From an uncultured Chitinophagaceae bacterium (GTDB lineage Bacteria; Bacteroidota; Bacteroidia; Chitinophagales; LD1), in contig CAZSEG010000008.1 in NCBI GenBank assembly GCA_964605875.1, forward strand, positions 1-44,564: a stretch of DNA of 44,564 bases, in the 5' to 3' direction. Position 1 is the stretch's first letter, and the number at the start of each line of letters is the position of its first letter. The translations under genes were made by a program, and so were the position numbers. This document shows positions 5,611 through 44,123 of the stretch, piece after piece. The notes beneath the pieces were generated by a model, which saw only the letters and a program-made list of their open reading frames with translations, had not been told where the DNA came from and made no database searches.

Positions 5611-5613
5611 TAT

Positions 5614-6234: not shown

Positions 6235-6244
6235 AATAGCGCGA

Positions 6245-11007: not shown

Positions 11008-12294
11008 ATGAACTCCGATATAGCCATAAAAGTTGAGCATCTTTCTAAGCTATATTCGCTTCACCATCCCCTGAAAGATGAACAGGGAAATGATACGCAT
11101 GAACTTTGGGCATTAAAAGATGTTTCGTTTGAAATTAAGAAGGGCGAAAGCGTTGGGATTATTGGACCTAACGGCAGCGGCAAAAGCACTTTGCTTAAAA
11201 TACTGGCAGGAGTAACAAAGCCGACATCGGGGAAAGTTGAAATAAACGGCAGGATTGCAAGCATTTTAGATATAGGCGCGGGCTTTCATCCCGAATTGAG
11301 CGGTCGGGAAAATATTTTTCTGAACGGGCAAATACATGGATTCAGTAAAAAAGAAATCCGGTTAAAATTTGATGAAATAGTCGCTTTTTCAGGAATTGAA
11401 AAATTTATTGATGAACCGGTAAAAAATTATTCCAATGGGATGTATTTGCGGTTGGCATTCAGCATTATGGCTCATTTAGATTTTGATATGTATTTGTTTG
11501 ATGAAGTATTTAGCGTGGGGGATACAAAATTCGCTGCTAAAGTCAATGAAAAGATTGATAAAATTATTAATTCAAAGAAAACAATAATACACGTAAGTCA
11601 CAATTTTAACGAATTTCATAATAAAGTTTTATACATTTTAGTTGAAGCCGGAGAAGTGAAAGAACTAAGCAGGAACAGGATGATAATATCTAATTATGTT
11701 GAGCGTAATCTTAATCTGAAAAAAAATGAAATTCTCACCAATGCGATTGAAATAGAGGATTTTTCAACCTTTCCTGAATCAGATGAACTTAAAATTATCA
11801 AGGTTAAGTTTTATCAAAACCAAAAGGACGATAAAGAGCAATTCATAACAAATAAGAGTTTTATCATTGAATTAGAATATGAAAAATTTAAGGACGAAAA
11901 TACCATTGATATTATACTAATAGTATCAGATTATCAGGGAAATCCTATTATTACCTCTACTTCTTTTATTGCGGGAGATTTTAGTAAATGGATTAAAAGG
12001 GGGCGGTATGTTAATCAATGTATTATTCCTTCGAATACTTTTCACTCTCAGCCGTACAAAATTAGTTTCTATTTTGTAAAAAATACAGAGCGTCTTGTTC
12101 TACAATCTATACATAATGAAAATGTTAAAAACCTATATAATGACAATACTATTGACATAGCATTAAAAATATCTGATTTAATATTATTTAAACCGTTGTT
12201 TTTCAAAAATGGAATGCCTGCGGATTTAGGTTCTTTAAATTTGGGAGGTCAAATCCTTTTGGGGTGTGATTGGAAATCAGAAAGCATAGTGTAA
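11008..12294 (+). CDS. wzt: ABC-2 type polysaccharide export ATP-binding protein with C-terminal extension (Wzt_C-like glycan-binding domain)
   Basis: Walker A 'GPNGSGKST', signature-like 'YSNGMYLRLAFS', Walker B 'MYLFDEVFSVGD', H-loop 'HVSHN'. About 180 extra C-terminal residues, as in Wzt proteins that recognise glycan caps. Confidence 0.88.
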   Translation: MNSDIAIKVEHLSKLYSLHHPLKDEQGNDTHELWALKDVSFEIKKGESVGIIGPNGSGKSTLLKILAGVTKPTSGKVEINGRIASILDIGAGFHPELSGRENIFLNGQIHGFSKKEIRLKFDEIVAFSGIEKFIDEPVKNYSNGMYLRLAFSIMAHLDFDMYLFDEVFSVGDTKFAAKVNEKIDKIINSKKTIIHVSHNFNEFHNKVLYILVEAGEVKELSRNRMIISNYVERNLNLKKNEILTNAIEIEDFSTFPESDELKIIKVKFYQNQKDDKEQFITNKSFIIELEYEKFKDENTIDIILIVSDYQGNPIITSTSFIAGDFSKWIKRGRYVNQCIIPSNTFHSQPYKISFYFVKNTERLVLQSIHNENVKNLYNDNTIDIALKISDLILFKPLFFKNGMPADLGSLNLGGQILLGCDWKSESIV

Positions 12295-13238: not shown

Positions 13239-14099
13239 ATGAACACTTTTGAAGTACAGGAAATGTTCTCCAGCAATATACAACATCACCATACAAATTA
13301 TATTCAGGATATGAAAATTCTAAGAAATCCGGTTTTACAAAATTTTCTGAATCAGAATGGATATGTGGTCTTAGATCTGTTCAACGAACAGAATGTACAA
13401 GATTTTTTGGACGAATACTATTCTTTTGAAGAAAAATTTCAATTTAGCAATGGCGTTCATATAACTATGGAACATTGCAGTCCTGATTTGAGTAAAATGA
13501 TTTCTGATAAACTAATAAATCTGGCAACTGATTGTTTCAACAATACTTTTAAGGATTATAAGTTGTTTCAAGGCAGTTTTATATCAAAACAACAAAATTC
13601 AGAATCTAATGAAATCCACCATCACCAAGACTGGACATTTGTAGATGAGCAAAATGGTTTTGAATCTTATACACTTTGGATTGCTTTATGCGACATTACA
13701 AAAGATATGGGAACGATTGGAGTTATTCCGAAAAGTCATTCGGATATAAAAAACATTCGCTATTCCCCCATAGAAAAATACTCTTTTTATTCTGAACTGT
13801 TAGAGTATGCAAGCCAAAAATCAGTTGAGTATATTGAGTTGAAAGCGGGTCAGGCTGTTTTATGGAATCATCGTTTGGTGCATAGTTCAAGTGCCAATAA
13901 TTCTGGAAAAGTCCGTATCAATATGACTTTCGCAATAACATCTAAAGATGCACAATTGAAATTATTTTGGTTATCGCCCAAAACAAACAAAGTAGTAGAA
14001 TTTAATGTTCCTGACAATTTCTACTCAATAAATAATTCCTCAACACTTTCAGCGTATTTTAAAAACGCTGAATACCCTGAAAATGCAATTGAAGTTTAA
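13239..14099 (+). CDS. Phytanoyl-CoA dioxygenase (PhyH) family Fe(II)/2-oxoglutarate oxygenase
   Basis: 286 aa. Facial triad 'HHQD' (H at 13623-13625, D at 13629-13631), distal His in 'LWNHRLVHSS', and the PhyH-type 'GTIGVIPKSH' segment. Confidence 0.75.
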   Translation: MNTFEVQEMFSSNIQHHHTNYIQDMKILRNPVLQNFLNQNGYVVLDLFNEQNVQDFLDEYYSFEEKFQFSNGVHITMEHCSPDLSKMISDKLINLATDCFNNTFKDYKLFQGSFISKQQNSESNEIHHHQDWTFVDEQNGFESYTLWIALCDITKDMGTIGVIPKSHSDIKNIRYSPIEKYSFYSELLEYASQKSVEYIELKAGQAVLWNHRLVHSSSANNSGKVRINMTFAITSKDAQLKLFWLSPKTNKVVEFNVPDNFYSINNSSTLSAYFKNAEYPENAIEV

Positions 14100-14123: not shown

Positions 14124-15002
14124 ATGAAAAAAATATTTAATGACCCTCAGCAAAACAGTCAATACATCAATGAAGGCTATGTTATTTGCGATTTACTTTC
14201 CCCTGAAGAAGTACAAAGCACATTGTCTGAACTGACGGCATTACGCCCTGATGATAAATTTGCACCAATAGACAGAGCCTCCAGCTATCATTGCACATTT
14301 CTTGACACAAACGAAGATTACAAACGAAGTGTCAATAGCCTGATTCAAAAAATATTAAATCCTTATCTCGAAAAGATTTTAAACGAATATGTGATTTGGG
14401 GAGCAAATCTTTATGTGAAGCCATCCGGAACAGGAAAGTTTGAGATGCATCAAAACTGGATGCACGTCAGCAATGAAAAAGAGCAAACTTCATTAACAAT
14501 TTGGTGTCCGTTGGTAAACACCAGCACCGATAATGGCACAATTCAGTTAGTTCCAAAATCTCATAAAATTGTACCGGATATTGCTACTGCAAATGTACCT
14601 TGCTATTTTTCTGAAATAGAAGATTTCATATTAAGTGATTATTTACAACCAATTCCTTTAAAAGCCGGGCAGTGTGTGATTTTTGAAGATGGGGTTATCC
14701 ATTTTTCGGATGTTAATCTGGCAAGCACACCAAGATATGCTCTTCAAATATTAGTGGGGCATAAAGAAGTAAAGCCTGTTTACTATTATTTTGATGAAAA
14801 AAATCCTGAAAAAGGTTTTGAAGTGTTTGAATTGGAAACAGATTTTTGGGTAACAAGCAGCTATCATACATTCAGAGATAAACCTAAAAATCAAAAGTCG
14901 GTTGGTTTTGTTGAAAACATCAATAAACAACTGAATAGAGAAGACTTCATTAAAGCAATGGAAAATGGTGCTGTAAGAAGAAAAGAAATTTACGGTGATT
15001 AG
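14124..15002 (+). CDS. PhyH family oxygenase paralogue with an HxN in place of HxD
   Basis: 292 aa, collinear with the previous ORF ('GTIQLVPKSH', 'LKAGQCVIFEDGVIHFS'). The triad reads 'MHQN' (N111 = AAC at 14454-14456). Confidence 0.7.
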   Translation: MKKIFNDPQQNSQYINEGYVICDLLSPEEVQSTLSELTALRPDDKFAPIDRASSYHCTFLDTNEDYKRSVNSLIQKILNPYLEKILNEYVIWGANLYVKPSGTGKFEMHQNWMHVSNEKEQTSLTIWCPLVNTSTDNGTIQLVPKSHKIVPDIATANVPCYFSEIEDFILSDYLQPIPLKAGQCVIFEDGVIHFSDVNLASTPRYALQILVGHKEVKPVYYYFDEKNPEKGFEVFELETDFWVTSSYHTFRDKPKNQKSVGFVENINKQLNREDFIKAMENGAVRRKEIYGD

Positions 15003-16177
15003 GCGGTTACTTTTAATGAAACCAATTTAAAAATTGAACCATTAAACAGGGTGAAATACTCATCTTGGGAGTAACGAAAGTTATCTGTCGGGATAAACTT
15101 TATTAAGAATTGTTGTGTTATTTTTTTTGCAAGCTGTTCACCAAGACATTTATGCTGTCCATATCCAAACGCAAGATGCTTTTGTTTTTGTTCGGGATAA
15201 AATGTTTGCGGATTCATAAACTGTTCCGGGTCTCTGTTGGCAGCTCCTAAAAATAAAGCAATAGTAGAATTAGGCGGAATCGTTATTCCGTCAATGCTGA
15301 CCTCCGTATTGTTTTCCCTGAATGTCAGTTGTATCGGTGAGTACAGCCTGAACACTTCATTCATGAACTGCTCTGAATAGTCCGAATCGTTTATCAATTT
15401 TTTTCTGTCTGCCACATCGGTATAAATCAAATACAAACAAGAGGTAATTGCGCTGGCTGTTGTTTCAGTTCCCGAAAAAATTAAAAACCGGATAAATTTT
15501 ATCAGGTCTTCTTTAGAATGTTGAGTTATTCCACTAATTCCCGACAACATATTTTTCATGTTTTCAGAAAAAGTTTTTTCAGATAAATTTTTTTCAATAA
15601 CCTCGTCTAACAGGCTCCAGTTTTCATAAATGTTTTTGATATACTGATTTCGCAATGCTCTGTTGTTTTGAACAGAAAAAATATTGATAGAATCCGGTAA
15701 TTTTAAAAATCCCAATGATTTGAATGTCATTGTAAGCATAAAAGGATTTATTAATTCGTCAACCAGATTGATTGTTTCCAATTGTTTTGTTTCTTCTGAA
15801 AGATGATTAAAACAGAGGTTGAAAAAATCAGCGTTTACAGGCAGGGAAGAATAATTATCAATAATTTCTCTTTTTATTTTTAAGTGATTACTAACATCAG
15901 CACCTAACAGTACGGGATCCATTGAACGATGAAAACGAGATGGAGCATAAACATCACTATTTCTTATGATTGCTTTTAAGGTATCATATCTGAATACAAT
16001 GTAGCAATCGTTTTTCTTTGAATAAAAAGTCTTCCCGATTTTGTAAAAATCATTGTAGTATGTAAATAAATTATCTCTGAATTCCTGAGAATAAATATCA
16101 AGCTCGCTCAAATCAGCAGTTTCCTTACGAATTGGGTTAAACAGTAATTTAAACCTTGTAAGCAGACTATTTTTCAT
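14999..16177 (-). CDS. Cytochrome P450
   Basis: 392 aa. I-helix 'SGTETTA', ExxR 'EVFRLYSP', heme-thiolate loop 'FGYGQHKCLGEQLA'. Confidence 0.9.
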   Translation of the reverse strand: MKNSLLTRFKLLFNPIRKETADLSELDIYSQEFRDNLFTYYNDFYKIGKTFYSKKNDCYIVFRYDTLKAIIRNSDVYAPSRFHRSMDPVLLGADVSNHLKIKREIIDNYSSLPVNADFFNLCFNHLSEETKQLETINLVDELINPFMLTMTFKSLGFLKLPDSINIFSVQNNRALRNQYIKNIYENWSLLDEVIEKNLSEKTFSENMKNMLSGISGITQHSKEDLIKFIRFLIFSGTETTASAITSCLYLIYTDVADRKKLINDSDYSEQFMNEVFRLYSPIQLTFRENNTEVSIDGITIPPNSTIALFLGAANRDPEQFMNPQTFYPEQKQKHLAFGYGQHKCLGEQLAKKITQQFLIKFIPTDNFRYSQDEYFTLFNGSIFKLVSLKVTA

Positions 16178-16180
16178 ACT

Positions 16181-17026
16181 TTACTTTTGTGCACTTATCA
16201 AATAATAATGGTACATTCCTGTTTTCAAATACATCTTCTCTCTCAATTCATCCATATTCTTGATTTCATTTTTTTGTATGGTGTCGGAATGTCTCCATTC
16301 GTTGAAATTTTCGGAGAACAAATAACCGTAGGGCAATACATCTTCACTGATTTCTTCAGCTTCCACATTTTTGAATCCGGCTTTCTTTAATTTATCAACG
16401 TAAACATCAATAGAATACAAATTTTGGGAGGGAACACCCATAAATTTCGAGGCAGTTAACACGCTCGGATTATTGGTGTCATTTGATTTCGGCAATGCGT
16501 CAGTGAGAATCAGGCTGCCGCCTTTTTTCAGTACTCTGAATGCTTCATTAAAAAAACGCTCTCTGCTATTAAAATGAAAAGCACATTCAACAGCAATAAT
16601 CTTATCAAAAAAATCAGCCTGAAACTTTAGCTGAACAGCATCACCGCTCAAGAGTTTTACTCTGTCTGAAAGATTATTTTCCAAAATCTTTTTCTGAGCA
16701 TACTGCACCTGTTTATCAAAAATATTTATTCCTGTAATACAGATACCATGAAAAATTTGGGCGATATATATATCCTGAATTCCATAACCAAAACCCACAT
16801 CCAGAATATGCTCTCTATTCTTTAATGCTGCCTTTTCCATAACTAAATCCAGCATTTCCCTGCAAGCAAAATCTATTGTATCGGCATTTTTCCAATATCC
16901 TAAATTCAACCATTCATAATTAAGATTTCTGTTATTGGATACTCTTGCATCTTCCAGTATCTCATACAACTGATGCACAGAAGTATCTGTTTTTTTACGA
17001 CTGAATATTTTAGAGAAATTGGACAT
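16181..17026 (-). CDS. Class I SAM-dependent methyltransferase
   Basis: 281 aa. 'LNLGYWKN..' followed by motif I 'ILDVGFGYGIQD' and post-I/II 'LLSGDAVQL', 'KKGGSLILTD'. It lies 3 nt upstream of the P450 on the same strand. Confidence 0.85.
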   Translation of the reverse strand: MSNFSKIFSRKKTDTSVHQLYEILEDARVSNNRNLNYEWLNLGYWKNADTIDFACREMLDLVMEKAALKNREHILDVGFGYGIQDIYIAQIFHGICITGINIFDKQVQYAQKKILENNLSDRVKLLSGDAVQLKFQADFFDKIIAVECAFHFNSRERFFNEAFRVLKKGGSLILTDALPKSNDTNNPSVLTASKFMGVPSQNLYSIDVYVDKLKKAGFKNVEAEEISEDVLPYGYLFSENFNEWRHSDTIQKNEIKNMDELREKMYLKTGMYHYYLISAQK

Positions 17027-17137: not shown

Positions 17138-19297
17138 GTGGAAATTGATTCTTTAGACATTAGCTCCTTTGATTTTTTTAAGAACCCTTATTTTTATTAT
17201 GAAAAATTGAGGGTGCGAAATCCTGATGTTCACTTCCTGAGTAAAAATGGTTGTTATCTTGTAATAGGATTTGGGGCTGCTGCAAAAGTTCTTGGCACTC
17301 CTAAAATTTACAGTTCAAAATTCAATGAAGTTTTTGACAGTGTTTTAATTGGTTCTGACCCTCCCGTTCACACAACAAACCGTAAAATACTCACAGAAGA
17401 ACACGATTTTCTGAAAACGAAGCTGGAAGATTATATCCGAGTCAGAATAGAAGATATTGCTTCTTATGTTTTAAATCAAACAGGCAACAAACAGGTTACA
17501 GATGTGGTGAGAGATTTTGCCTACCCTTTATCTACGCTTATCATTTTTGAAATGCTTGGATTGGATATTTCAAATGATAAAATCATAAAGGAATGGACTT
17601 ACAATGCTGTGCTGAACATCAATATTCATAACATTCACAATTCGGAACACCACTGGCAAATATTCAAACCTGTTGTTGAAGCGTATATTGATAAAAAAGA
17701 AAACAGTTCGGTTTTTCTTAATCAAAAAATTCGCGAGAGGTTTTCCAGAGAGGAGCTAATCAGTGTAACAAAAATATTTTTAACAGGCGGAAACGAAACA
17801 ACTCCGAAACTTATCACTTCCTGTCTTAATTACCTCATCAGGAATAAATCTTTATGGAACTTAGTGAAGACTAACGAAGATGCTTTGGAACAGGTTATCC
17901 ATGAGATACTAAGATTGGAAGCGCCTGTTCAGATTATCAACCGTATAGCCACAGAGGATACATCTCTTGGCGGAGTTCAGATTCCTAAAGGCTCGGTTAT
18001 TTTTGTTTCGCTTGCTGCGGCAAACAGAGACCCCCGTGTTTTCGACTCTCCAAATGATGTAATATTACACAGGGACAAACAGAAAATTCTTTCATTTGGT
18101 TATGGACCTCATCATTGTATAGGAGCTTCTTTAGCTAAAACCGAAACCAAAATAGCTTTGAAAAAATTTATTTCCCATTTTAAAGAACCCCATTTACTTC
18201 CGATTTCACAACAAGACTACATTGAATCCAGCCATGTCAGAGGTTTGAAATATTTATATGTTCAAGATGCTGATTCTGTGAAAAAAGTCAGCAATTACAG
18301 AGAAAAAGCGGTTGATTTATTAGAGGCACAATTAAAAGAATATAATCACTTTCCTACGTTTGAATTTTATCCGGATTTTGAATCCAAAAAACATAAAGGC
18401 TGGCATTATACTTACCCCTCGCCATTTATACATGCCAATGTTATCTGTTCATTGCTTAATACTGAAAATGAACAACTGATAAGTTTGGCAAAAAAAGGAA
18501 AACCGTTTTTACTGGAAACGAAAGAAAGCGGAGATTTATGGAGGTTTTGGAAAACGGATAATTGTCAGCACCCAGTTCCTTTTGATATAGACGATACTGC
18601 AGTCTGTTCTTTTGCCTTAGAGAAAATGGGTCATGCTGTCAAAAACAAAAAAAGACTACTGCGCAATATAAAAGATGACGGAACGATTTTAACATGGTTT
18701 AAATCTCATTTCAAGCTGTCCGATTTTTGCTCTCCGAAATCAATTTACAAAGCGTTTTACGAAAAAAAAGCTATCCGATATACTTACGAAGCAAAAATGT
18801 TTGACTGGCAGGATTCCGAAGCAGGAGTTGCTTCCAGTGCGCTGATGTATTTGAATAATATACCATTGGAGAAATCTGTTGAAAAATGTATTTCACTTTG
18901 GAGAAATAATGATTCAAAGCATAATTTTTATGACAAAAAAATTGTCGTTGCTTATCACATTGCAAGGGCTTACAAGGAAGGGATACAATCTTTCGATGTT
19001 CTTAGGGCTGAAATGGAAGCGTATATCCAAAACAATCTGGATTACTTTGAATTTGCAGAATTATTGTTTGCCTGCCTGACCCTGAAATATCTTAAACTGG
19101 AAGAAGACACTTACAAAAAAACCTACATAAAGATTATCAATTATGCACTTGGCAACCCTGACGATTTATTTTCATATTATCCTTATTTCACATCAAAAGA
19201 CCATGTTTTTTATGCAGGGTCAAGATGCTTAACCGCAGCGATGTTCTTGGAAGTAACAAAAGATTATGACCTCAGTCCGGGCGGTAATGATTTTTAA
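17138..19297 (+). CDS. Fusion protein: cytochrome P450 (N-terminal ~380 aa) plus an alpha/alpha-repeat domain carrying a class II terpene cyclase-type DxDDTA motif (C-terminal ~330 aa)
   Basis: GTG start. P450 motifs 'GGNETTP', 'EILRLEAP' and 'FGYGPHHCIGASLA' (Cys327 at 18116-18118). The C-terminal domain has 'VPFDIDDTAVCSFAL' (DIDDTA at 18584-18601). Compare squalene-hopene cyclase 'DVDDTAVV' and copalyl-diphosphate synthase 'DIDDTAM'. Confidence 0.8.
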   Translation: MEIDSLDISSFDFFKNPYFYYEKLRVRNPDVHFLSKNGCYLVIGFGAAAKVLGTPKIYSSKFNEVFDSVLIGSDPPVHTTNRKILTEEHDFLKTKLEDYIRVRIEDIASYVLNQTGNKQVTDVVRDFAYPLSTLIIFEMLGLDISNDKIIKEWTYNAVLNINIHNIHNSEHHWQIFKPVVEAYIDKKENSSVFLNQKIRERFSREELISVTKIFLTGGNETTPKLITSCLNYLIRNKSLWNLVKTNEDALEQVIHEILRLEAPVQIINRIATEDTSLGGVQIPKGSVIFVSLAAANRDPRVFDSPNDVILHRDKQKILSFGYGPHHCIGASLAKTETKIALKKFISHFKEPHLLPISQQDYIESSHVRGLKYLYVQDADSVKKVSNYREKAVDLLEAQLKEYNHFPTFEFYPDFESKKHKGWHYTYPSPFIHANVICSLLNTENEQLISLAKKGKPFLLETKESGDLWRFWKTDNCQHPVPFDIDDTAVCSFALEKMGHAVKNKKRLLRNIKDDGTILTWFKSHFKLSDFCSPKSIYKAFYEKKAIRYTYEAKMFDWQDSEAGVASSALMYLNNIPLEKSVEKCISLWRNNDSKHNFYDKKIVVAYHIARAYKEGIQSFDVLRAEMEAYIQNNLDYFEFAELLFACLTLKYLKLEEDTYKKTYIKIINYALGNPDDLFSYYPYFTSKDHVFYAGSRCLTAAMFLEVTKDYDLSPGGNDF

Positions 19298-19348: not shown

Positions 19349-20764
19349 ATGATAAGAAGATTGAAGAATAAAATAAAAAAAATATGGGAAACTCCGGTTT
19401 CAGACGGTGATACAGCCAGCCGTTCTTGGACAGATGAATTTAATAAGCACCGCAACAAAAAAGATATTTTTCGTGTCTGCCATGCCCCGTTCAAATCCAT
19501 CAGATTTGAGCCGAAGGGCATCGTGCGTACCTGTTGCTATAACGTTGAGGTTGTTTTAGGGCGTTATCCGGAAATGTCATTAACTCAAATTTGGAATAGC
19601 GATGAGGCGAATTTGCTAAGGGAAAAAATCAGTAACAATGATTTAAGCATGGGATGCCGCTTGTGCGGGCAGCAGTTAGCAAACAAAGAATACAGCACCG
19701 TTAAACTGTTGCAATATGATAATTTGCCCGACAGTATCAACAATTATCCTGTAATGCTTGATTTTTCATTGCACAATACTTGTAATTTGGAATGTGTGAT
19801 GTGTCACGGAGAGTTTTCTTCTTCTATAAGAAGCAATCGCGAAAAGCTGCCCCCTGTTCCAATGTTGTATGACGATAATTTTGTGCAGCAACTGGAAGAA
19901 TTTATTCCTTATGCACGGCAATTTGTATTTGCAGGTGGCGAGCCGTTTCTAATCAAGGTATATTACGATATTTGGGAACGCATCAATCGCCTGAGTCCCG
20001 AATCAGATATTCACATTGTTACAAATGGTACAATCTTAAATGAACGGGTAAAAACGATACTTGCCGCAGGAAAATATCACATTACCATGTCAATAGATTC
20101 CTTTCAGGAAAAAACCTACGAAACAATAAGGGTAAACGCATCATACAAACGTGTTATGGAAAATATGCAGTTTTTTCAAGAATACTGTAAACAACAAAAT
20201 ACCGAGTTTGCTGTTAATGTTTGCCCGATTAAAGAAAACAGGTTTGAAATTCCGGAAATGGTTGGCTTTTGTAATGCGCACGCAATTAAGTTGTATCTGT
20301 TAAACATCGTGTATCCTGTTGGGGTGTCTTTACACACACTGCCTTTGGCAGAACTGCAAACATTGCATGATAACTATGCTGCGTATCAATTTGAGCAGGA
20401 CACATACATCAGTAAACACAATTTAAAACAGTTTGAAGATTTGCAAAACAGAATTGCGGCACTGATACAAAAGAAAACGACAGATACCCCCGATGCTCAA
20501 TATACAGATGGCGACAAAGTTATGTTTGAGGTATATACCGACTTGCTTACAGAGAAAGCAGACAGGTTTTATCAGGAATCGGGGAGCGATGTTGTTGATG
20601 CCAGACAAAAAATAACAGAGATAGGAATACATTTTAAAGACAGTTACGTTTCTAAAGGAAGATTGAAAGAAATGGAAAGCATCAGTTCCGAAAGAATAGT
20701 TGTAATGTTCAGGACATTGTCTCATGAAGAGTTGAAAGAAGTAATAAAAACCCATATACTTTGA
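19349..20764 (+). CDS. Radical SAM enzyme with an N-terminal SPASM/twitch-like Cys motif
   Basis: 471 aa. CX3CX2C 'CNLECVMC' at 19781-19804. Upstream of it, 'CHAPFKSIRFEPKGIVRTC' fits CX12GX4C (first Cys at 19478-19480), followed by 'IW' and 'GCRLCG'. Confidence 0.82.
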   Translation: MIRRLKNKIKKIWETPVSDGDTASRSWTDEFNKHRNKKDIFRVCHAPFKSIRFEPKGIVRTCCYNVEVVLGRYPEMSLTQIWNSDEANLLREKISNNDLSMGCRLCGQQLANKEYSTVKLLQYDNLPDSINNYPVMLDFSLHNTCNLECVMCHGEFSSSIRSNREKLPPVPMLYDDNFVQQLEEFIPYARQFVFAGGEPFLIKVYYDIWERINRLSPESDIHIVTNGTILNERVKTILAAGKYHITMSIDSFQEKTYETIRVNASYKRVMENMQFFQEYCKQQNTEFAVNVCPIKENRFEIPEMVGFCNAHAIKLYLLNIVYPVGVSLHTLPLAELQTLHDNYAAYQFEQDTYISKHNLKQFEDLQNRIAALIQKKTTDTPDAQYTDGDKVMFEVYTDLLTEKADRFYQESGSDVVDARQKITEIGIHFKDSYVSKGRLKEMESISSERIVVMFRTLSHEELKEVIKTHIL

Positions 20765-23064
20765 AAAGCAGCTTTCATATAAAAGACAAAATTTCCCCTT
20801 GGTGGCAACCTAAGATTGCTTTTATACTATCGCATTGCTATTTGTGCTTTGCCATATTCCAAACAGATATTGTCCGTTCTGTTTTGTTTGTACTTCTGTT
20901 TACAATAAGTGCGTTAGGATTCGGTATGCTGGGGCATATCATTAACGATTGGACAGACGCAGAAACCGACAGAAAAAGCGAAAAAAAAAACATCGCCAAC
21001 GCATTTGGCTTTCGGAAATTACTGTGGGTTACTTCAGGTACATTATTGATTGCATTTTTCCCTTGGTTCTTTTTGGGGTTCGACCACATCATAGCAGCAT
21101 TTCTTATTGCCGAAATCCTGCTTTTTATTTTGTATTCCGTAAAACCGTTCAGGGTAAAGGAAAGAAAATGGGGCGGGGTACTTTTTGATGCCTTATATGC
21201 TTACGCGCTCCCGACTGCGCTGGTTTTTTATTCGGCAACAATATTTTTTGAACAGCCGCTAAACTTGATACTATTGGTGTCTGTGTCATTGTGGGCTTTG
21301 GCTGTGGGAATACAGAATATTATCATTCACCAGATAGAAGATTATGAAAATGATATTAGCTCAAAAACCCAAACATGGGTTGTGCAAACCGGAAGGCAAA
21401 AGGCACGAAAATTAGTACTCGCCTTTATTGTGCCACTCCACCTGTTATTATTTCTGCTGTTTGTATTTTATGTAGAAACACATTATTTACGTTTTTATGC
21501 CTTATTTCCATTATTGTTTCTTGCTTTCAGAATATACAAAACATTTCATTGGAAATCGTATAATTCTTTTCTGCGTTCTCCCGTATCATCAGACCTGCAA
21601 AAAATCAATATTCACTATCATTTTTTTCTTCCTTACTGGCATTTGCTTCTGTTGATTTTTATTGATTTTAAATTTGTCGTTTTGTTGATAACGCATTTCA
21701 TTTTCTTTAATTCCTCATTATTCAGTTGGCTTATTGCTAAATACATATCACCTTTTTTATTTTTTATTTTTTACAAAACACCCGCAGTAATTACAAATTA
21801 CGCTGTTTTTTATTACCGCCTTTTTTTTCTTGGAGAGTCGGCAGAACGTGCAAGACGAGAACATTATGCTTCGTATATCGCTGCAAAAAATGAAAAACAC
21901 AAAAGAAACACTTTGCCTAATATTGCCGTAGCGAACAGCAACAAAAACAAATACACCGAAACCTTTGTCGAAAATCATGTTGATGGTCTTCTTCGCTCAA
22001 ATTTTTATGTACACAGACTTTACGGAGGAAATTTACCATCTGCCGATTACCGGACGGGAATCCTTATTTCCAACAGCAAAGCATATATCAAATATTGCGA
22101 GTGGAAAGAGTTTATTTTCGATTTACCCGAAAATTATTATCAGAAAAAGGCAGTGAAAGATTATTTGGTAAAAAACAATATTACTCTTGCGTTGGCAGAG
22201 TTTGGAACGTGTGGCGTTGAACTATATGAAATTTGCTCCGAAATAAATATACCCTTAATTGTTATTTTTCACGGTTACGATATTCATCACAGTGATATAC
22301 GCGAAAAAAACAGACATCGTTACCTTAAAATGTTTGACTATGCTGCTAAAATTATAGGAGTTTCAAAGGATATAATAAGCAGGTTAAAAGAATTGGGTGC
22401 TGACGATAAAAAACTGATTTATTTACCTTGCACTTTTAATGCCGGTATATTCCAATATTCAGATCATTCAAAATGCGAAAATATTTTTCTTGCCGTAGGA
22501 AGATTTACAGAAACTAAAAGTCCGCACCTGACAATTCTTGCATTTAACGAAGTGTTGAAAGAAATTCCAAATGCACGGCTGAGAATGATTGGAAAAGATG
22601 GCGGAGGCGAATTATTTGAAGCCTGTCATATTCTGGCAAAAGCATTGAGCATAGAAAATAAGATTGATTTTTTGGGTGTTCTTTCGCCTTCCGAAGTTTA
22701 TGAAGAAATGAAAAATGCACGGGTATTTGTGCAACATTCATTGACAACCCCGCTGCATGGAGATAAAGAAGGAACTCCCGTTTCCGTAATAGAAGCAATG
22801 GCTTGCGGGCTGCCGGTAGTTGCTACCCGCCATGCGGGCATTGCAGAGCTAATCCGGTCGGGTGAAAATGGGATTTTGACAGAGGAGTATGATTATTTGA
22901 CAATGGCAAAAGAAATGGTGCGTGTTTGCAAAAACGATGCTTTAGTTTTTTCATTGGGAAAAAATGCTTCGGAAAGTATCCTGACCAATTCTTTAATCAC
23001 TGAAAATTCCAATATCTTAGCCGAGATAATTGAAAAATGCAGACTAAACAGTAAAACTTGCTGA
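20761..23064 (+). CDS. Fusion protein: UbiA-family prenyltransferase (N-terminal, membrane) plus GT4 glycosyltransferase (C-terminal)
   Basis: 767 aa. The TTG start overlaps the previous stop, so the start is uncertain. Asp-rich motifs 'NDWTDAETD' (20944-20970) and 'EDYEND'. About 8 TM helices, then a WcaL-like GT4 with 'GRFTETKSPH' and EX7E 'EGTPVSVIEAMACGLPVVAT' (22768-22794). Confidence 0.8.
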   Translation: MKSSFHIKDKISPWWQPKIAFILSHCYLCFAIFQTDIVRSVLFVLLFTISALGFGMLGHIINDWTDAETDRKSEKKNIANAFGFRKLLWVTSGTLLIAFFPWFFLGFDHIIAAFLIAEILLFILYSVKPFRVKERKWGGVLFDALYAYALPTALVFYSATIFFEQPLNLILLVSVSLWALAVGIQNIIIHQIEDYENDISSKTQTWVVQTGRQKARKLVLAFIVPLHLLLFLLFVFYVETHYLRFYALFPLLFLAFRIYKTFHWKSYNSFLRSPVSSDLQKINIHYHFFLPYWHLLLLIFIDFKFVVLLITHFIFFNSSLFSWLIAKYISPFLFFIFYKTPAVITNYAVFYYRLFFLGESAERARREHYASYIAAKNEKHKRNTLPNIAVANSNKNKYTETFVENHVDGLLRSNFYVHRLYGGNLPSADYRTGILISNSKAYIKYCEWKEFIFDLPENYYQKKAVKDYLVKNNITLALAEFGTCGVELYEICSEINIPLIVIFHGYDIHHSDIREKNRHRYLKMFDYAAKIIGVSKDIISRLKELGADDKKLIYLPCTFNAGIFQYSDHSKCENIFLAVGRFTETKSPHLTILAFNEVLKEIPNARLRMIGKDGGGELFEACHILAKALSIENKIDFLGVLSPSEVYEEMKNARVFVQHSLTTPLHGDKEGTPVSVIEAMACGLPVVATRHAGIAELIRSGENGILTEEYDYLTMAKEMVRVCKNDALVFSLGKNASESILTNSLITENSNILAEIIEKCRLNSKTC

Positions 23065-24851
23065 AAGGATTACACATAAATTTGTTCGCAAAGGCAACTG
23101 TTCCCTGGGTTATATGGACTGTATGCTTTTTTTTGTACTACCATCCGGGAATTGCTGCTCTCTTAGTTTTTATTGAATCGAACGTTGCTTTTTTGTTTAC
23201 GGCAAATTATTCGGAATACAAACAATGGTATCCTAACTGGCATCTTCTTGTATTTTTTGTTTTCCGTATTTTCCCGTTTATACTCATTTTACTGTGCAGC
23301 TTTCTTCTTCTAAAAATTATTCAAAAAAAAGGCAATAAGATTCTTAGCCGTTTAATCCCGTTTTTTGAGCTTAATTTCATGCAGTTGTTGTTTAATGCCG
23401 TTGCATTGTTACTTTTTTGGCTATTTGTGTATTACACGTTTCAGCCCGATTTTACCCGGCAGCTTATTATGGCACGTTGCTTTGTTTTGACACTTTATAT
23501 GCAACTGCTATTAACTGTTGTATTTAATTTTAACCGGGTAAAGAATATACTTAAACAATTTCTTTTTGTGCCTGCATTGCCATATACGCTGTCCATTTTC
23601 AGAATACTTTTTTATGCTTACAGCATTATATTTTATTTAGGCAACAGTGCCCGTTATTTTAAATCTGTTGCGAGCGGAACATTTACGCCAATGCCAATAT
23701 TTGGCGAATTATTTTATGTTTTTTCAACTTCTTTGTTTTTATATCAAGTTGTTTTTTGGCTGTGCATTGCTTCTTTTATAGGCGTAATAATAGGCTATAA
23801 AACTCGCTTGTTCTTAATATTAAGTGCAGTGCTAAGCCTGTTTGTGATAAGTGTTCCCAATATGTTTGGAACAAGCTGGCATCATCATCTTTTTATATGG
23901 GTAACATGGTTTTTAGTATTCAGTCCTTGTTTTGATGTTTATTCCATAGACTCGTATTTAAATAAAAACAAAACAATCCGGTTAAAAGGTGAATATACTT
24001 TCACTATTCGTATTATCTGGCTTCAAATAGGTATTCTGTATTGGTGTTCAGGTGTTGCTAAATTATGGGATTCCGGTTTTGACTGGGCATTGAGCGATTC
24101 TATGATTAACCAGTTTCAATTAGAATGGTTTGAGAACTATAATAAAGTGCCATATATCCGAATAGACAGATACCCGGCTTTAATGAAATTTGGCGGCTTG
24201 GCAGCGATTTGTTTTGAAATGCTGTACTTCTTCTTCCTTTTTAAAAAATATACCAGAAGAATTGCAATTTGGGGAGCATTGCTGATGCACAACCTGCTTG
24301 GATATTTTCTATATATCAGTTTTCTTGCTGCGCTTCAGGCTTTTTATATAGTTTTTATTGACTGGAATAAATATTTTAAGAGCAATAATGTGGCGGAAAT
24401 TCAAGACCGAAATCCTGTAAATAAGTGGAATATTCGTATCGGTATCGGAGTTGTTTTAATGAATCTGTTTTTTGGTATGGCATCTATTAAAACGTATCCT
24501 TTTTCCGGTTATCCTGAATATTCAGAAATTATACCTGACTATACATATCAACTTAAACTTACCGGATATAATGATGATAAAATTGTTTTTACAAATGCCG
24601 ATTTTGAGAAAGAAGGCTTTGACTGGGAAACTTTCAGACGGAGAGAACAAAAAATTGCCAATGTTTTTTTAGGGGGAAATGATTGCGAATCGTATATCAG
24701 GTCGTATTGGAGTTTGATTAACCAACATATTCGCGCATCGAAAGATGTTCGCAATCTTGATGTCAGCCTGCTTAAAGTAAACCTGAACCCGGACAGCCTG
24801 AAAATACTTGACGAGAAATTTATCGGGAGCTATTCGTTTGCTGTAAAATAA
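23058..24851 (+). CDS. HTTM domain (vitamin K-dependent gamma-carboxylase-like) polytopic membrane protein, paralogue 1
   Basis: 597 aa, TTG start. 'LSIFRILFYAY', 'WHHHLFIWVTWFLVFSPCFDVYSID' and 'WLQIGILYWCSGVAKLWDSGFDWA' fit the HTTM pattern. Strongly collinear with ORF 27921-29750. Confidence 0.6.
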   Translation: MLKGLHINLFAKATVPWVIWTVCFFLYYHPGIAALLVFIESNVAFLFTANYSEYKQWYPNWHLLVFFVFRIFPFILILLCSFLLLKIIQKKGNKILSRLIPFFELNFMQLLFNAVALLLFWLFVYYTFQPDFTRQLIMARCFVLTLYMQLLLTVVFNFNRVKNILKQFLFVPALPYTLSIFRILFYAYSIIFYLGNSARYFKSVASGTFTPMPIFGELFYVFSTSLFLYQVVFWLCIASFIGVIIGYKTRLFLILSAVLSLFVISVPNMFGTSWHHHLFIWVTWFLVFSPCFDVYSIDSYLNKNKTIRLKGEYTFTIRIIWLQIGILYWCSGVAKLWDSGFDWALSDSMINQFQLEWFENYNKVPYIRIDRYPALMKFGGLAAICFEMLYFFFLFKKYTRRIAIWGALLMHNLLGYFLYISFLAALQAFYIVFIDWNKYFKSNNVAEIQDRNPVNKWNIRIGIGVVLMNLFFGMASIKTYPFSGYPEYSEIIPDYTYQLKLTGYNDDKIVFTNADFEKEGFDWETFRRREQKIANVFLGGNDCESYIRSYWSLINQHIRASKDVRNLDVSLLKVNLNPDSLKILDEKFIGSYSFAVK

Positions 24852-26950: not shown

Positions 26951-27919
26951 ATGAAAAAAGCAATTGTATTAGGCGCAGGCGGCTTCATCGGCTCGCATTT
27001 GGTGAAAAGATTAAAAAGCGAAGGTTATCGCGTAAAAGGAATTGATTTAAAACATCCCGAATTTTCCGGAACAGCAGCCGATGAGTTTGTTTTGGGCGAT
27101 TTGCGCAATTGGGATTTTGTGCAAAATATCATTGACGAAAATACAGACGAACTATATCAGCTTGCAGCCGACATGGGCGGAGCGGGATATATTTTTACCG
27201 GAGAACATGATGCCGATGTGATGCACAATTCAGCACAAATAAACCTGAATGTGGCAAAAGCAGCCGTTGAGAAAAAAGTGAAAGCATTATTTTATTCTTC
27301 GTCTGCCTGTATGTATCCCGAATATAATCAGACAGACCCCGACAACCCCAAATGTGCTGAAAACACTGCCTATCCTGCCGCACCCGACAGCGAATACGGA
27401 TGGGAAAAATTGTTCAGCGAACGCCTGTATTTATCGTTCAAAAGAAATTACGGGCTGAATGTAAAAATCGCCCGCTATCACAACATCTACGGAACGGAAA
27501 GCGCGTGGAAAAACGGTAAGGAGAAAGCTCCTGCCGCGCTTTCAAGAAAAGTAGCGCAAACGCCCGGTGGCGGTGAAATAGAAATTTGGGGCGATGGAAA
27601 ACAAACCCGTTCGTTTCTTTTTATTGACGACTGCTTGGATGCAACAACAATGCTGCTGCGGTCGGATAAAACAGGAGCATATAATATCGGTTCGGAAGAA
27701 ATGATTTCGATTAACGATTTTGCAAAACTGATTATGCAAATTGCAGGAAAACAATTCACGATAAAAAATATACCGGGACCCGAAGGCGTAAGAGGAAGAT
27801 GTTCCGATAATGCTTTGATTAAAAAAGATTTGAAATGGCAACCGGAATATGATTTGAAAAAAGGAATGGAAATTACTTACAAATGGATAGCGGGGGAAGT
27901 TGAAAAAAATAAAATCTGA
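26951..27919 (+). CDS. GDP-mannose 3,5-epimerase-like SDR (NAD-dependent epimerase)
   Basis: 322 aa. 'GAGGFIGSH', 'LAADMGG', 'SSACMYPE', 'YGWEKL', 'RYHNIYG..WKNGKEKAPAA', 'WGDGKQTRSF.FIDDC', 'IPGPEGVRGRCSDNALIKK'. These blocks match plant GME almost block for block as I recall its sequence, including the catalytic Cys/Tyr/Lys positions. Confidence 0.8.
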   Translation: MKKAIVLGAGGFIGSHLVKRLKSEGYRVKGIDLKHPEFSGTAADEFVLGDLRNWDFVQNIIDENTDELYQLAADMGGAGYIFTGEHDADVMHNSAQINLNVAKAAVEKKVKALFYSSSACMYPEYNQTDPDNPKCAENTAYPAAPDSEYGWEKLFSERLYLSFKRNYGLNVKIARYHNIYGTESAWKNGKEKAPAALSRKVAQTPGGGEIEIWGDGKQTRSFLFIDDCLDATTMLLRSDKTGAYNIGSEEMISINDFAKLIMQIAGKQFTIKNIPGPEGVRGRCSDNALIKKDLKWQPEYDLKKGMEITYKWIAGEVEKNKI

Positions 27920-29753: not shown

Positions 29754-31268
29754 ATGAAACCTCATTTAAAGACAATTACTTACCTGTTCCTGCTCAACAT
29801 TTTTTTTGTTGTCTTTTTATTTTTGCTTGGGCACTCGTGGTATATAGCTGAAATGGGAGAAACTGCAAAAACAGCATATCCGCGATTTTATTTTTTGTTT
29901 GTGTTGCTTGGGCAGAACAGTGTTTTTCTTTTTGATTTTTTTTCAATAGCAATTATTCTGCTTAATACCTTTCTTATATTCAAACTAATCTCATTATATC
30001 GTGATAAAGGGACAGCAGTTCTTTTTTTCTGCTCAACAACAGTTGCACTTATGGCAGCGGAATGGACATTGAGAAAAATGGAGTATCTGCCCGGAATGTA
30101 TCCATGGTCTAAATATTCATTCAAACCTGCAGAAAAATTACAAGAGAAGAAAGGTTTTTATGCTGATGAAGACGGCATATTGAAAATTGACAGTACAAGC
30201 CAATTAGAAATAGCTTCAATGATAGTGAAAAATCAAAAAGAATTTGGGATAAACAAAGCAGATGAAGTGTATGAACTGGCAAGCAATTATACAGATGTTT
30301 TAAACAGAATGGCAGACAATGATTTTTCTGAACATTATTTTTCGATAATGCAAAAACCTGAAAATATACGAACGGAATGGGAAGCTGCCATAGTAAATTT
30401 TGTTTGTAACCCGATAAATAAAGATGGATTCAGAAGTATTGAGTTCAAGAGATACAGGTGCTCCAAACCTTCCATATTACTGCTCGGTGATTCTTTTACC
30501 TGGGGGCATACTACTGATAATAAAACCAACTCATTTGCCGATATTTTATTAAGCAAAGGTTTTGTGGTATATAATACAGGAATTACTACAACAGATGTGG
30601 CTCAGTATTTAGCCGTGGCAAAAAAATATATTCCCGAATTATACCCCGATTATGTAGTCGTAAATTTTTATCTCGGCAATGACATTTCTTATTACAAACG
30701 GGAGGTTTTGCCACATCACCCGACATTTTATTGTACTAATAACTATTTACTTGCCTGTCCGCATGGCAAATATCTGAACAAGGAAGAATCTTATCAATTT
30801 GCATTGGCATATAATCAAGTGCCGTCTAACGAAAAAAGTATAGTGGATAGACTATTGATAAAAACCGTAGTCGGAACACTATTGATGTGGCGTTGCTCAA
30901 ATATTGATTTGGTTCCTTACCTGACACATTGTAATTCAGGAATCCACAGAGGAATTTTGACACCTTATTTCCAAGAAGCTGAAAAACGGAAATACCCGAC
31001 ACCGTACTGCAATCAAGAGTTACAACAAATAAAAAACATAGCCGAGCAGCACAATTCTAAATTTATTTTGTCATCTATTCCCGATTTCAGTACCGGGTCG
31101 TTGAAAACGACAAAGGACTTTCCTGATTTGTTTACAGGAATGGAGTATGTAGAAATGAACGTGAGGCGGGCAGATTACGAATTGGGGAGTGGAATACATT
31201 TTAATGAGGCGGGTCATAAAAAGTATGCGGAATTTTTGGACAGCTTAATACGAAACTCTCAATACTAA
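29754..31268 (+). CDS. Membrane-anchored SGNH/GDSL-family hydrolase or acyltransferase
   Basis: 504 aa with N-terminal TM helices. Block I 'LLLGDSFTWGH', block II 'NTGITTTD', block III 'NFYLGNDI', block V-like 'GIHFNEAGHKKYAEFL'. Confidence 0.65.
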   Translation: MKPHLKTITYLFLLNIFFVVFLFLLGHSWYIAEMGETAKTAYPRFYFLFVLLGQNSVFLFDFFSIAIILLNTFLIFKLISLYRDKGTAVLFFCSTTVALMAAEWTLRKMEYLPGMYPWSKYSFKPAEKLQEKKGFYADEDGILKIDSTSQLEIASMIVKNQKEFGINKADEVYELASNYTDVLNRMADNDFSEHYFSIMQKPENIRTEWEAAIVNFVCNPINKDGFRSIEFKRYRCSKPSILLLGDSFTWGHTTDNKTNSFADILLSKGFVVYNTGITTTDVAQYLAVAKKYIPELYPDYVVVNFYLGNDISYYKREVLPHHPTFYCTNNYLLACPHGKYLNKEESYQFALAYNQVPSNEKSIVDRLLIKTVVGTLLMWRCSNIDLVPYLTHCNSGIHRGILTPYFQEAEKRKYPTPYCNQELQQIKNIAEQHNSKFILSSIPDFSTGSLKTTKDFPDLFTGMEYVEMNVRRADYELGSGIHFNEAGHKKYAEFLDSLIRNSQY

Positions 31269-32563: not shown

Positions 32564-33548
32564 TCCATATTTGTCAATAGTATTGGTAGGGCGTAATGAT
32601 AATTACGGTGGCGATTTTAGGGAGCGTTTGCAAATGTGCATATCCGGTTTGTTCGAGCAGTTAAATCGTTTCCGGATTCATTCGGAAATTATTTTTGTCA
32701 ATTACAATCCTTTACCGGAACCGGATATTAAAGATTTTATTGCTTGGCACAAATCAACCGATTATGTTTCAATTCGTATCATAACAGTTCCTTCTGAAGT
32801 CCATGAAAAATTTGTTTTGAAGCACGGAATAAAAAACGTTCCGGTGAATGAATATCTTGGAAAAAACGCAGGAATAAGAAGAAGCAAAGGTGAATATATT
32901 TTATGTATGAATCCTGACATTTTGTTTCCTGACGAACTCGTAAAATATGTTTTAAAAGGATTGCAACAGTGTTATTTTTACCGTGCAAACAGAATTGATT
33001 TTGATTTTGTTGACGGAAAAAAACAATTGCTGCGCATTAATTTGAAAGGACATTCTCCCAAAATTCAAATTTACTCAGAATGGGCTACTTGGTTCTTAAA
33101 TTTGAAATATGCTTTTATCAATTGGTATATGATCAATTCAGTCAGGATAGAAAAGTTTTTAAATCGCATCAAAAAGCCGGTTTTTTATGATAATGCCGAA
33201 CTTCGTTTTCACTGCAAAACCAGTGGAGATTTTATGTTGATGCACCATTCACATTGGATGGCAACAGAAGGTTATTTTGAAACTTCCGCTATCGCACTTC
33301 ACATAGATTCATTATTTGTCATTCAAACTGCAATGTATGGTTTAAAGGAAAAGGTTATTAAATTTCCTATTTACCACAGAGAGCATGAAAGAAGATTTAC
33401 CGCAAACAATGATAATCCCGAAGAACTTGATGCCTATAAGCGTTTTCAACATGAAGCACAGATGATGCTCAAACAGAAGAAGAATAAAATATTTAATCAA
33501 AATAATTGGGGATTGATTGACTTGACATTACCCGAAATTAATTCATAG
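32556..33548 (+). CDS. GT-A fold glycosyltransferase (GT2-like)
   Basis: 330 aa. 'LSIVLVGRNDNYGGDF', 'NAGIRRSKGEYILCMNPDILF', 'GDFMLMHHSHWMATEGY'. Overlaps the upstream gene by 8 nt. Confidence 0.65.
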   Translation: MSNPYLSIVLVGRNDNYGGDFRERLQMCISGLFEQLNRFRIHSEIIFVNYNPLPEPDIKDFIAWHKSTDYVSIRIITVPSEVHEKFVLKHGIKNVPVNEYLGKNAGIRRSKGEYILCMNPDILFPDELVKYVLKGLQQCYFYRANRIDFDFVDGKKQLLRINLKGHSPKIQIYSEWATWFLNLKYAFINWYMINSVRIEKFLNRIKKPVFYDNAELRFHCKTSGDFMLMHHSHWMATEGYFETSAIALHIDSLFVIQTAMYGLKEKVIKFPIYHREHERRFTANNDNPEELDAYKRFQHEAQMMLKQKKNKIFNQNNWGLIDLTLPEINS

Positions 33549-44030: not shown

Positions 44031-44123
44031 ATAGATAATTAAATACAACTGTTGCAAAACAAGGTTCAGTTTTAGTTGTCAGTTTGTTTTTATTGCAGCG
44101 CATTAAAACACGAACTGATTTCA

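Follow-up and report, generated by a model that had tools for sequence, protein, structure and literature searches.

A conserved UbiA-GT4 fusion protein that may couple isoprenoid transfer with glycosylation in an uncultured Chitinophagaceae bacterium

Enzymes of the UbiA superfamily are defined by a pair of Asp-rich motifs at the cytoplasmic ends of transmembrane helices (TM) 2 and 6; in AfUbiA the N-terminus and both motifs lie on the cytoplasmic side of an eight-helix core, and the canonical nine-helix fold places the C-terminus outside the cell (PMC4106721). In the merosterol pathway of cyanobacteria, which also has P450s, a cyclised meroterpenoid is made by a UbiA-like prenyltransferase together with MstE, a monodomain class II cyclase resembling squalene-hopene cyclase (PMC5618424, PMC12414744). 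The UbiA fold and both motifs also occur in the phosphoribose transferases DPPRS Rv3806c of M. tuberculosis and PPPRS ORF15 of C. youngae (three-component), and PPPRS of the UbiA family exist as fusions in O-antigen loci, for example of a HAD phosphatase to UbiA, with an SDR-type epimerase, a flippase and a GT-C protein as partners (PMC11127046). Here we describe a gene at 20761-23064 (+ strand) in a stretch of 44,564 nucleotides from an uncultured Chitinophagaceae bacterium (contig CAZSEG010000008.1 of assembly GCA_964605875.1, positions 1 to 44,564; hereafter the window), the product of which joins a UbiA domain to a C-terminal glycosyltransferase of family GT4.

Both superfamilies are known; the novelty lies in the attachment of GT4 at the C-terminus, in the UbiA clade, which is uncharacterised, and in the locus around the gene. 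Literature searches returned no paper on a UbiA-GT4 architecture, its partners or such a locus, and none describing a P450-cyclase fusion; for UbiA enzymes with class II cyclases or P450-cyclase fusions, the merosterol pathway was the only precedent found. As in that pathway, a UbiA-fold transferase, a beta-only class II cyclase-like domain of ~340 amino acids (aa) and P450s stand in one locus, and UbiA-cyclase fusions occur within the present clade. In contrast to merosterol, no genes for an aromatic acceptor were seen, the transferase is fused to GT4, the cyclase-like domain is fused to a P450 and was not found near the fusions of Flavobacterium type, and the locus adds PhyH paralogues, an ABC-2 exporter, HTTM-like proteins and nucleotide-sugar genes. 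The likeness to PPPRS extends to fusion with a second enzyme within a glycan locus that has an ABC transporter, an SDR epimerase and a GT-C protein (PMC11127046), although the fused partner is there an N-terminal phosphatase and here a C-terminal GT4, there is no match to the sequence models of DPPRS/PPPRS, and the structural fit is poorer than to prenyl-diphosphate enzymes. The best structural matches are AfUbiA (4tq3) and DGGGP synthase (6m31/7bpu), with motifs likewise at the cytoplasmic ends of TM2 and TM6 (PMC4106721). Identity to these archaeal enzymes is nevertheless only 14-18% with no sequence-level match, and the present family adds an HL8-9 motif, two further hydrophobic segments (S9 and S10) and GT4. 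The GT4 half shares the GT-B fold, the EX7E motif and the R/K phosphate-binding residues with BshA, MshA, PimA, MGlcDAG synthase, WcaL and EpsE and would act, as they do, at the cytoplasmic membrane face; unlike these named GT4s, for which all models scored far below cut-off, it is tethered to a polytopic UbiA domain.

The reading that we favour, and to which we would give a probability of roughly 0.45, is that the protein is a bifunctional inner-membrane enzyme which transfers an isoprenoid and glycosylates the product, within a locus for a terpenoid glycolipid or glycan. The UbiA-fold domain would bind an isoprenoid diphosphate through Mg2+ held by the two Asp-rich motifs at the cytoplasmic face, and would pass the chain, either linear or pre-cyclised by the neighbouring class II cyclase-like domain, to an acceptor. 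The tethered cytoplasmic GT4 would then glycosylate the head group of the same membrane-bound product, with a nucleotide sugar as donor. The architecture, the intact catalytic motifs, the fold and the conserved partners are observed, whereas the type of donor, the order of the two steps, the substrate shared between them and the cytoplasmic position of GT4 are the predicted parts of this scheme. Its end product would be either a glycolipid of terpenoid type or a glycan anchored by a terpenoid.

The fusion gene is a single uninterrupted open reading frame (ORF) of 767 aa, as the sequence-only reading of the window had reported, and starts at a TTG codon, sharing the tetranucleotide TTGA with the TGA stop of the upstream radical S-adenosylmethionine (SAM) gene. 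Its UbiA-fold core of eight helices (aa 15-262; 20803-21546, + strand) was delimited with an AlphaFold2 (AF2) model, Foldseek and Pfam; PF01040 matched aa 31-259 with 49.8 bits against a gathering cut-off of 34.2 (E 3.8e-13). Translation confirmed the first Asp-rich motif, NDWTDAETD (aa 62-70; 20944-20970, + strand), which lies at the end of TM2 in the AF2 model, and the second, HQIEDYEND (aa 190-198; 21328-21354, + strand), at the end of TM6, and the UbiA-defining pair NDxxDxxxD and DxxxD is present at aa 62-70 and 194-198 (D194xxxD198). Both motifs are therefore located where they had first been noticed, in a polytopic N-terminal part which can now be described more finely as the eight-helix core plus S9 and S10.

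The GT4 domain, of GT-B type, occupies aa 386-767 (21916-23061, + strand) as judged from Pfam and from sequence matches in the PDB. Glycos_transf_1 matched aa 569-737 with 113 bits against a threshold of 26.4 (E 1.4e-32); Glyco_transf_4, the N-terminal half of the GT-B fold, reached 26.7 bits at aa 457-557, slightly below its cut-off of 28.5, and a precomputed PF13439 match is present in most of the fusion homologues. The EX7E motif reads EGTPVSVIE (22768-22794, + strand; translation check), and its glutamates E670 and E678 align with the corresponding residues of BshA 2jjm, which bears out the original assignment of a C-terminal GT4 with EX7E. The best PDB sequence matches were BshA-type 2jjm/3mbo (E ~1.3e-13) and MshA-like 3c48/3c4q (~3e-7). 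Against NCBIfam, GT4 gave weak matches to EpsE and WcaL that fell far below their cut-offs, and no equivalog came close to its cut-off with either domain of the fusion. A reading as part of a defence system was rejected, as PF20706 ('GT4-conflict') scored only 21 bits against a threshold of 26, beneath the ordinary GT4 match. Between the two domains lies a basic juxtamembrane segment, ERARREHYASYIAAKNEKHKR (aa 362-382; 21844-21906, + strand), which includes a conserved ARREHY. A basic linker had been proposed and is indeed located here; it is, however, no mere spacer, since A364, R366, E367, H368 and Y372 are invariant or nearly so across the alignment of the fusions.

A homologue search covering 5.8 billion proteins returned 13 more full-length proteins of 749-764 aa with 41-56% identity and the same architecture, each encoded by a continuous ORF and found in independent assemblies. 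Homologues of identical architecture rule out the fusion as an assembly artefact. When the alignment was checked for missing UbiA catalytic residues, N62, D63, D66, D70, R131, K133, D143, H190, Q191, D194 and D198 proved invariant in the 14 fusions, as did R581, K586, E670 and E678 in the GT4 part; both catalytic domains are intact and selected together. A GT4-only orthologue of 455/457 aa also exists (P0015, L014). A genome scan identified the carriers as metagenome-assembled genomes (MAGs) of Chitinophagales, Flavobacterium and Saprospiraceae, with one cyanobacterium, and the database names of family members are 'hypothetical' or generic.

To place the N-terminal domain, its profile was searched against 1.84 billion representative proteins, and 2,800 representative clusters were recovered at E<=1e-3 and 710 at E<=1e-30. 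Among the 150 best representatives, 96 are stand-alone proteins of 320-400 aa and 24 bear the orthologous GT4 domain (hidden Markov model E<=1e-79), with two more bearing it in part. In the stand-alone relatives N62, D66, D70, K75, N77, Y125, R131, K133, G183, D194 and D198 are essentially invariant; N62, D66 and D70 were found in all 96, and D63 in 92, with Glu in the remaining four. The family carries K75-x-N77 after motif 1, a position at which other UbiA families usually have an R-P type motif, and the HL8-9 motif DLQKINIHYH is an additional conserved feature.

No PDB sequence matched the N-domain, used alone or as a nine-sequence profile, even at E<=10, and matches of clade N-domains in NCBIfam were weak and far below cut-off. 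They were to archaeal prenyltransferases, ChlG/BchG, MenA, DGGGPS and HPT; as all of these use prenyl or phytyl diphosphates, the matches were counted in favour of prenyl transfer. The AF2 model of the UbiA part (pLDDT 87.4) has the UbiA fold, with AfUbiA (4tq3/4tq4) and DGGGPS (6m31/7bpu) as best Foldseek matches (E 1e-4 to 1e-3, TMt 0.59-0.65). For AfUbiA, DGGGPS and ApUbiA the match probability was 1.00 with TMt 0.53-0.69, and the model shows the all-helical two-bundle fold. From these sequence features the most likely activity of the domain is predicted to be Mg2+-dependent transfer from an isoprenoid diphosphate. The clade as a whole is large, and includes no member of known function that we found and none with a solved structure detectable by sequence.

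With respect to topology, Lys and Arg are concentrated in the N-terminus, in the loops TM2-3 (which carries motif 1), TM4-5, TM6-7 (which carries motif 2) and TM8-S9, and in the linker, while the alternate loops, as placed by AF2 helices and charge distribution, hold zero or one such residue. This agrees with the orientation of AfUbiA. The positive-inside pattern favours a cytoplasmic GT4, a placement we also infer from the need for a nucleotide sugar and from the basic linker. Segment S9 (aa 290-316; 21628-21708, + strand) is a hydrophobic stretch whose centre holds a conserved D/E-x-K/R and whose helix is broken at D302; it is either TM9 or a re-entrant hairpin. Segment S10 (aa 318-340; 21712-21780, + strand) has low hydrophobicity, many aromatic and basic residues and a tendency to indels, and is probably interfacial. 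Its hydrophobicity is 0.30 on the Eisenberg scale, whereas the remaining helices reach 0.5-0.8; each sequence holds ~3 K/R here, and indels occur among close homologues. S10 is lacking in most stand-alone relatives and in the short-type fusions P0034, P0045, P0084 and P0112, where GT4 begins 20-40 residues past S9. The idea that aa 318-340 form a tenth helix which adapts the nine-helix fold to a cytoplasmic fusion, prompted by the lack of S10 in most stand-alone relatives, was dropped on account of its absence in short-type fusions, the low hydrophobicity with ~3 K/R, and the indels. As a nine-helix UbiA protein ends outside the cell, GT4 would be cytoplasmic only if S9 and S10 together cross the membrane zero or two times.

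Further indications as to the nature of the lipid come from the gene at 17138-19297 (+ strand), which encodes a protein of 719 aa with a CYP107-like P450 at aa 1-375 followed by a beta-only cyclase-like domain of ~345 aa (aa ~371-719). Pfam gave no match to these C-terminal 345 aa even at E<=5. The AF2 model of the domain (pLDDT 83.7), however, has an alpha/alpha-toroid fold and found the class II domain of drimenol synthase (9m7e/9mhs) as its top Foldseek match (E 5e-10, TMq 0.68), followed by squalene-hopene cyclase and Rv3377c. A DxDD motif, DIDDTA, is encoded at nt 18584-18601 (+ strand); in class II cyclases the middle Asp of this motif acts as general acid (PMC12232559), and it is kept in seven of eight aligned homologues, with Glu in P0212. 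Homologues of the domain are either fused to a P450 or stand alone beside a P450 gene, and in L027 and L028 the stand-alone genes adjoin a P450, a UbiA gene of the clade, ABC-2 and PhyH. Together with the PhyH genes and the CMAS-like methyltransferase, the P450-cyclase fusion points to terpenoid chemistry at the locus, a context that the sequence-only reading had missed.

The surroundings of the fusion were compared in related loci. In L001-L012, one to nine PhyH genes, an ABC ATPase, a CMAS-like methyltransferase, an HTTM-like protein, an SDR, the GT-A pair and a UDP-sugar dehydrogenase recur around the fusion, and some of these loci also have a carbamoyltransferase and a PMT_2 GT-C protein. 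Split forms occur as well: in L012 a UbiA gene (325 aa) and a GT4 gene (369 aa) overlap by 4 nt, and in L014, a Chitinophagaceae MAG whose SDR shares 93% identity with that of the window, a UbiA gene is followed by an AsnB-like gene and then by the 455-aa GT4 gene. The near-identical SDR makes an origin of the window in Chitinophagaceae probable. In L027 a non-homologous GT32-like gene lies directly 3' of the stand-alone UbiA gene. Functional coupling of the two domains is supported by their repeated fusion (24/150) and by the split genes in L012 and L014, and making a prenyl-linked molecule and then glycosylating it is the most economical reading.

The UbiA clade has other fusion partners too. 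It is joined to an HTTM-like domain in P0076, P0106 and P0202 and to the cyclase-like domain in P0152, P0158 and the cyanobacterial L017 ORF; further partners are GT4 with GDSL, PhyH with TPR, a CMAS-like methyltransferase and DUF6212. P0152 (1470 aa) has the order UbiA-cyclase-PhyH-TPR and P0158 (979 aa) UbiA-cyclase-TPR. The L017 ORF (492-4064, from a cyanobacterial MAG) is UbiA-cyclase-PhyH, with one in-frame stop at 483-485 within the UbiA part, which may reflect a pseudogene or an assembly error. In the Flavobacterium-type loci (L002-L004, L007-L010), seven to nine PhyH genes stand ahead of the fusion within 10 kb, some fused to each other or to the CMAS-like methyltransferase, an unusual density of Fe/2-oxoglutarate (2OG) enzymes.

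Several points weigh against the reading of the protein as a coupled isoprenoid transferase and glycosyltransferase of a terpenoid locus. Around the Flavobacterium-type fusions in L002-L004 and L007-L010, no cyclase-like domain was detected over +/-10 kb, so that cyclisation is not universal. No genes were recognised in the loci that would form an acceptor such as an aromatic acid or glycerol phosphate, and none for a prenyl diphosphate synthase. An odd number of crossings by S9 and S10 together would place GT4 outside the cell. All carriers found are uncultured MAGs, with no cultured model. Lastly, with its GT-C plus TPR protein the locus has the look of a classical Wzm/Wzt glycan locus as well, which would fit a role in making a lipid-linked sugar donor.

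This last resemblance bears on the possibility that the UbiA domain is DPPRS/PPPRS-like, transferring ribose-5-phosphate from phosphoribosyl pyrophosphate onto polyprenyl phosphate, with GT4 extending the product to give either a primer that replaces WecA/WbaP or a donor for the GT-C plus TPR protein. The fused PPPRS of O-antigen loci provide the precedent, and the present locus and its relatives hold comparable partners in an SDR epimerase, a PMT_2/GT-C plus TPR protein and a Wzm/Wzt-like transporter. WecA/WbaP-type families (PF00953, PF02397) were not detected in the scanned window ORFs of at least 120 aa, a few overlapping antisense ORFs and 44084-44521 being unscanned; the absence of such an initiator, as first proposed, is thus real for the window. 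The DPPRS models NF008977/NF008978, however, gave no match at E<=1 with nine N-domains of the family, yet they do match another UbiA protein, in L023, of the candidate phyla radiation. Likewise the DPPRS structure 8j8j was only 39th in the fold search (E 0.35, TMt 0.52, compared with 0.59-0.65 for AfUbiA and DGGGPS). Pfam scans of the window ORFs found neither a HAD/PAP2 phosphatase nor a GtrA/MATE/SMR flippase, and the cyclase-like domain, PhyH genes and CMAS-like methyltransferase would have no role. We know of no precedent for a GT4 acting on polyprenyl-phosphate-ribose, which also counts against this explanation, and we consider it unlikely; the analogy with the mycobacterial enzyme drawn at the outset fails on the models and the fold ranking.

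Pathways that depend on an ABC transporter commonly have their initiating transferase encoded at another site, so its absence from a locus needs no compensation, and here too it may lie elsewhere in the genome. Of the original proposal that the fusion creates and glycosylates a prenyl-linked primer, the make-then-glycosylate part is backed by the fusions and split genes, while compensation for a missing WecA/WbaP enzyme is left unsupported.

Alternatively the UbiA domain could be a non-canonical terpene cyclase or synthase of UbiA type that ionises the diphosphate of a class II product, with GT4 glycosylating the resulting terpene alcohol. UbiA-type cyclases have been inferred in 14% of bacterial gene clusters with an ent-copalyl diphosphate synthase (PMC9814783), the class II cyclase-like domain is encoded two genes upstream of the fusion, and the Asp-rich motifs required for diphosphate ionisation are intact. 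The lack of that domain within +/-10 kb in Flavobacterium-type loci speaks against it, the HL8-9 motif and the polar residues K75, N77, H190 and Q191 suggest, as far as sequence can indicate, a site for a second substrate, and nothing positively distinguishes this activity from prenyl transfer; we regard it as having a slim chance. Equally improbable, in our estimate, is that the fusion serves mainly as a membrane anchor, with GT4 an ordinary enzyme of a Wzm/Wzt glycan and UbiA active in a separate step or as a scaffold. The typical glycan genes of the locus, the stand-alone GT4 orthologue and the nearest named GT4 relatives, the exopolysaccharide enzymes EpsE and WcaL (at weak scores far below cut-off), would accord with an anchor. 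The invariance of the UbiA catalytic residues in all fusions, on the other hand, shows that the domain is not a dead anchor, and the fusion or adjacency of the same clade to several other enzymes of these loci argues for a shared lipid substrate. Prenylation of a quinone-like aromatic, used outside the cytoplasm as cofactor or substrate by the HTTM/vitamin-K-carboxylase-like neighbours, is very improbable, for although PF05090 (VKG_Carbox) occurs in some homologues of the adjacent ORF at 23058, ORF 9024 matches LMF1, UbiA-HTTM fusions exist and there are weak MenA-type matches, no genes for quinone-ring biosynthesis were seen, ChlG and DGGGPS are matched at least as well as MenA, and the GT4 fusion is left unexplained.

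Returning to the isoprenoid transferase-glycosyltransferase reading, the fusion would form the core of a ~28-kb low-GC locus at 8101-35708, perhaps with 2809-7465 in addition. In such a locus the lipid would be cyclised by the P450-cyclase protein, oxidised by P450s and PhyH enzymes, and methylated by the CMAS-like methyltransferase and the radical SAM protein; the two GT-A proteins, SDR, UDP-sugar dehydrogenase, GDSL and HTTM-like proteins would glycosylate or acylate it further, and the ABC-2 transporter would export the product. The tightly packed block at ~8000-36000 has a GC content of 31-38%, compared with 41-44% in the flanking housekeeping regions, a contrast typical of islands for surface glycans or secondary metabolites that are exchanged horizontally. 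A topoisomerase-like gene flanks it on one side and RecQ, LpxD and an LpxC-FabZ fusion on the other; the LpxC-FabZ (FabA-like) fusion protein, at 42582-44030 (+ strand), is usual in Bacteroidota, and these flanking genes point to a chromosome of that phylum, in support of the taxonomic assignment.

The ORF at 2809-5610 (+ strand), a possible outlying member of the locus, encodes a polytopic GT-C-like protein of 933 aa with C-terminal TPR, homologous to the PMT_2 plus TPR GT-C protein of L019 (49% and 33% identity, in two blocks). Many TM segments are present, the first loop carries an NMDDE motif, and the TPR is the one part recognised by Pfam. At the start of the block lie an ABC-2 type permease (Wzm-like; 8101-8925, + strand), an LMF1/HTTM-type polytopic protein of 626 aa (9024-10904, + strand; Pfam LMF1) and an ABC ATPase with a C-terminal extension of ~200 aa (Wzt-like; 11008-12294, + strand). 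The permease and the extended ATPase are the pair expected of a Wzm/Wzt pathway; a Wzt_C match is faint and was seen in the L002 homologue of the ATPase. Two Fe/2OG dioxygenases of the PhyH family follow (13239-14099 and 14124-15002, + strand). At the place of the iron-binding H-x-D of the facial triad, the first has H-Q-D and the second H-Q-N (FEMHQNW); the second may be inactive or of altered chemistry, its triad not being the H-x-A/G of halogenases. On the opposite strand, 14999-17026 encodes a P450 (392 aa) and a CMAS-like SAM methyltransferase (281 aa).

Immediately upstream of the fusion, 19349-20764 (+ strand) encodes a radical SAM protein with an N-terminal twitch/SPASM domain, and an orthologue occupies the same position in L005. 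The SPASM/twitch domain (aa 44-106) precedes the radical SAM core (aa 141-286), and the protein scored 164 bits with the N_Twi_rSAM model, slightly below the cut-off of 170. Downstream, an HTTM/VKGC-like polytopic protein of 597 aa (23058-24851, + strand), whose gene overlaps the fusion stop by 7 nt, is a conserved partner. An NAD-dependent epimerase/dehydratase (SDR; 26951-27919, + strand) is followed by a second HTTM-like paralogue of 616 aa (P0172; 27900-29750, + strand), 36% identical to ORF 23058. ORF 9024 was considered as a further paralogue and rejected, as BLASTP detected no similarity to ORF 23058; clear paralogy is limited to ORFs 23058 and 27900. The locus encodes, in all, three large polytopic proteins of HTTM, vitamin-K-carboxylase or LMF1 type.

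Two membrane-anchored GDSL/SGNH-like proteins (29754-32563, + strand), two paralogous GT-A proteins of GT2-like type (32556-33548 and 33550-34599, + strand) and a UDP-glucose/GDP-mannose dehydrogenase-like protein (34596-35708, + strand) complete the block. The GT-A paralogues share an N-terminal 'YLSIV..RNDN.GGD' motif and barely touch the Pfam GT2 model. The pair adjoins a UDP-sugar dehydrogenase-like gene in nine related loci, among them L002-L004, L007-L009 and L012, the dehydrogenase gene being only partly covered in L008. The many PhyH genes, the radical SAM protein, the HTTM/SdpB-like proteins and ABC-2 also led us to consider a locus for a ribosomally synthesised and post-translationally modified peptide, which was rejected because Pfam scans found no protease, small ORFs being unsearched, and the cyclase and nucleotide-sugar genes fit poorly.

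The fusion offers a direct handle on a large UbiA clade for which no member of known function was found and which was seen here only in MAGs and metagenome assemblies. As a single polypeptide holding both the putative lipid-forming step and the first sugar-adding step it should, when expressed alone, reveal the substrate of the clade, and as a natural chimera of a prenyltransferase and a glycosyltransferase it could be used for engineering. More tentatively, and with more doubt than assent on our part, we propose that the clade nucleates a new membrane-bound assembly line, in Bacteroidota and some cyanobacteria, for isoprenoid glycolipids of the envelope that are exported by Wzm/Wzt-type transporters; physical coupling of its steps, which would be prenyl transfer, class II cyclisation, several Fe/2OG hydroxylations, C-methylation and glycosylation, is suggested by the alternative fusions UbiA-GT4, UbiA-cyclase-PhyH-TPR, UbiA-methyltransferase and UbiA-HTTM. 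Its products would constitute a novel class of lipids or glycan anchors of the bacterial surface. If the product is indeed a terpenoid glycolipid or anchored glycan, it would be a new type of envelope lipid, with a new logic of priming or anchoring for ABC-transporter-dependent export. It would also explain the PhyH-rich loci that stand beside the fusion in MAGs of freshwater Flavobacterium and Chitinophagales.

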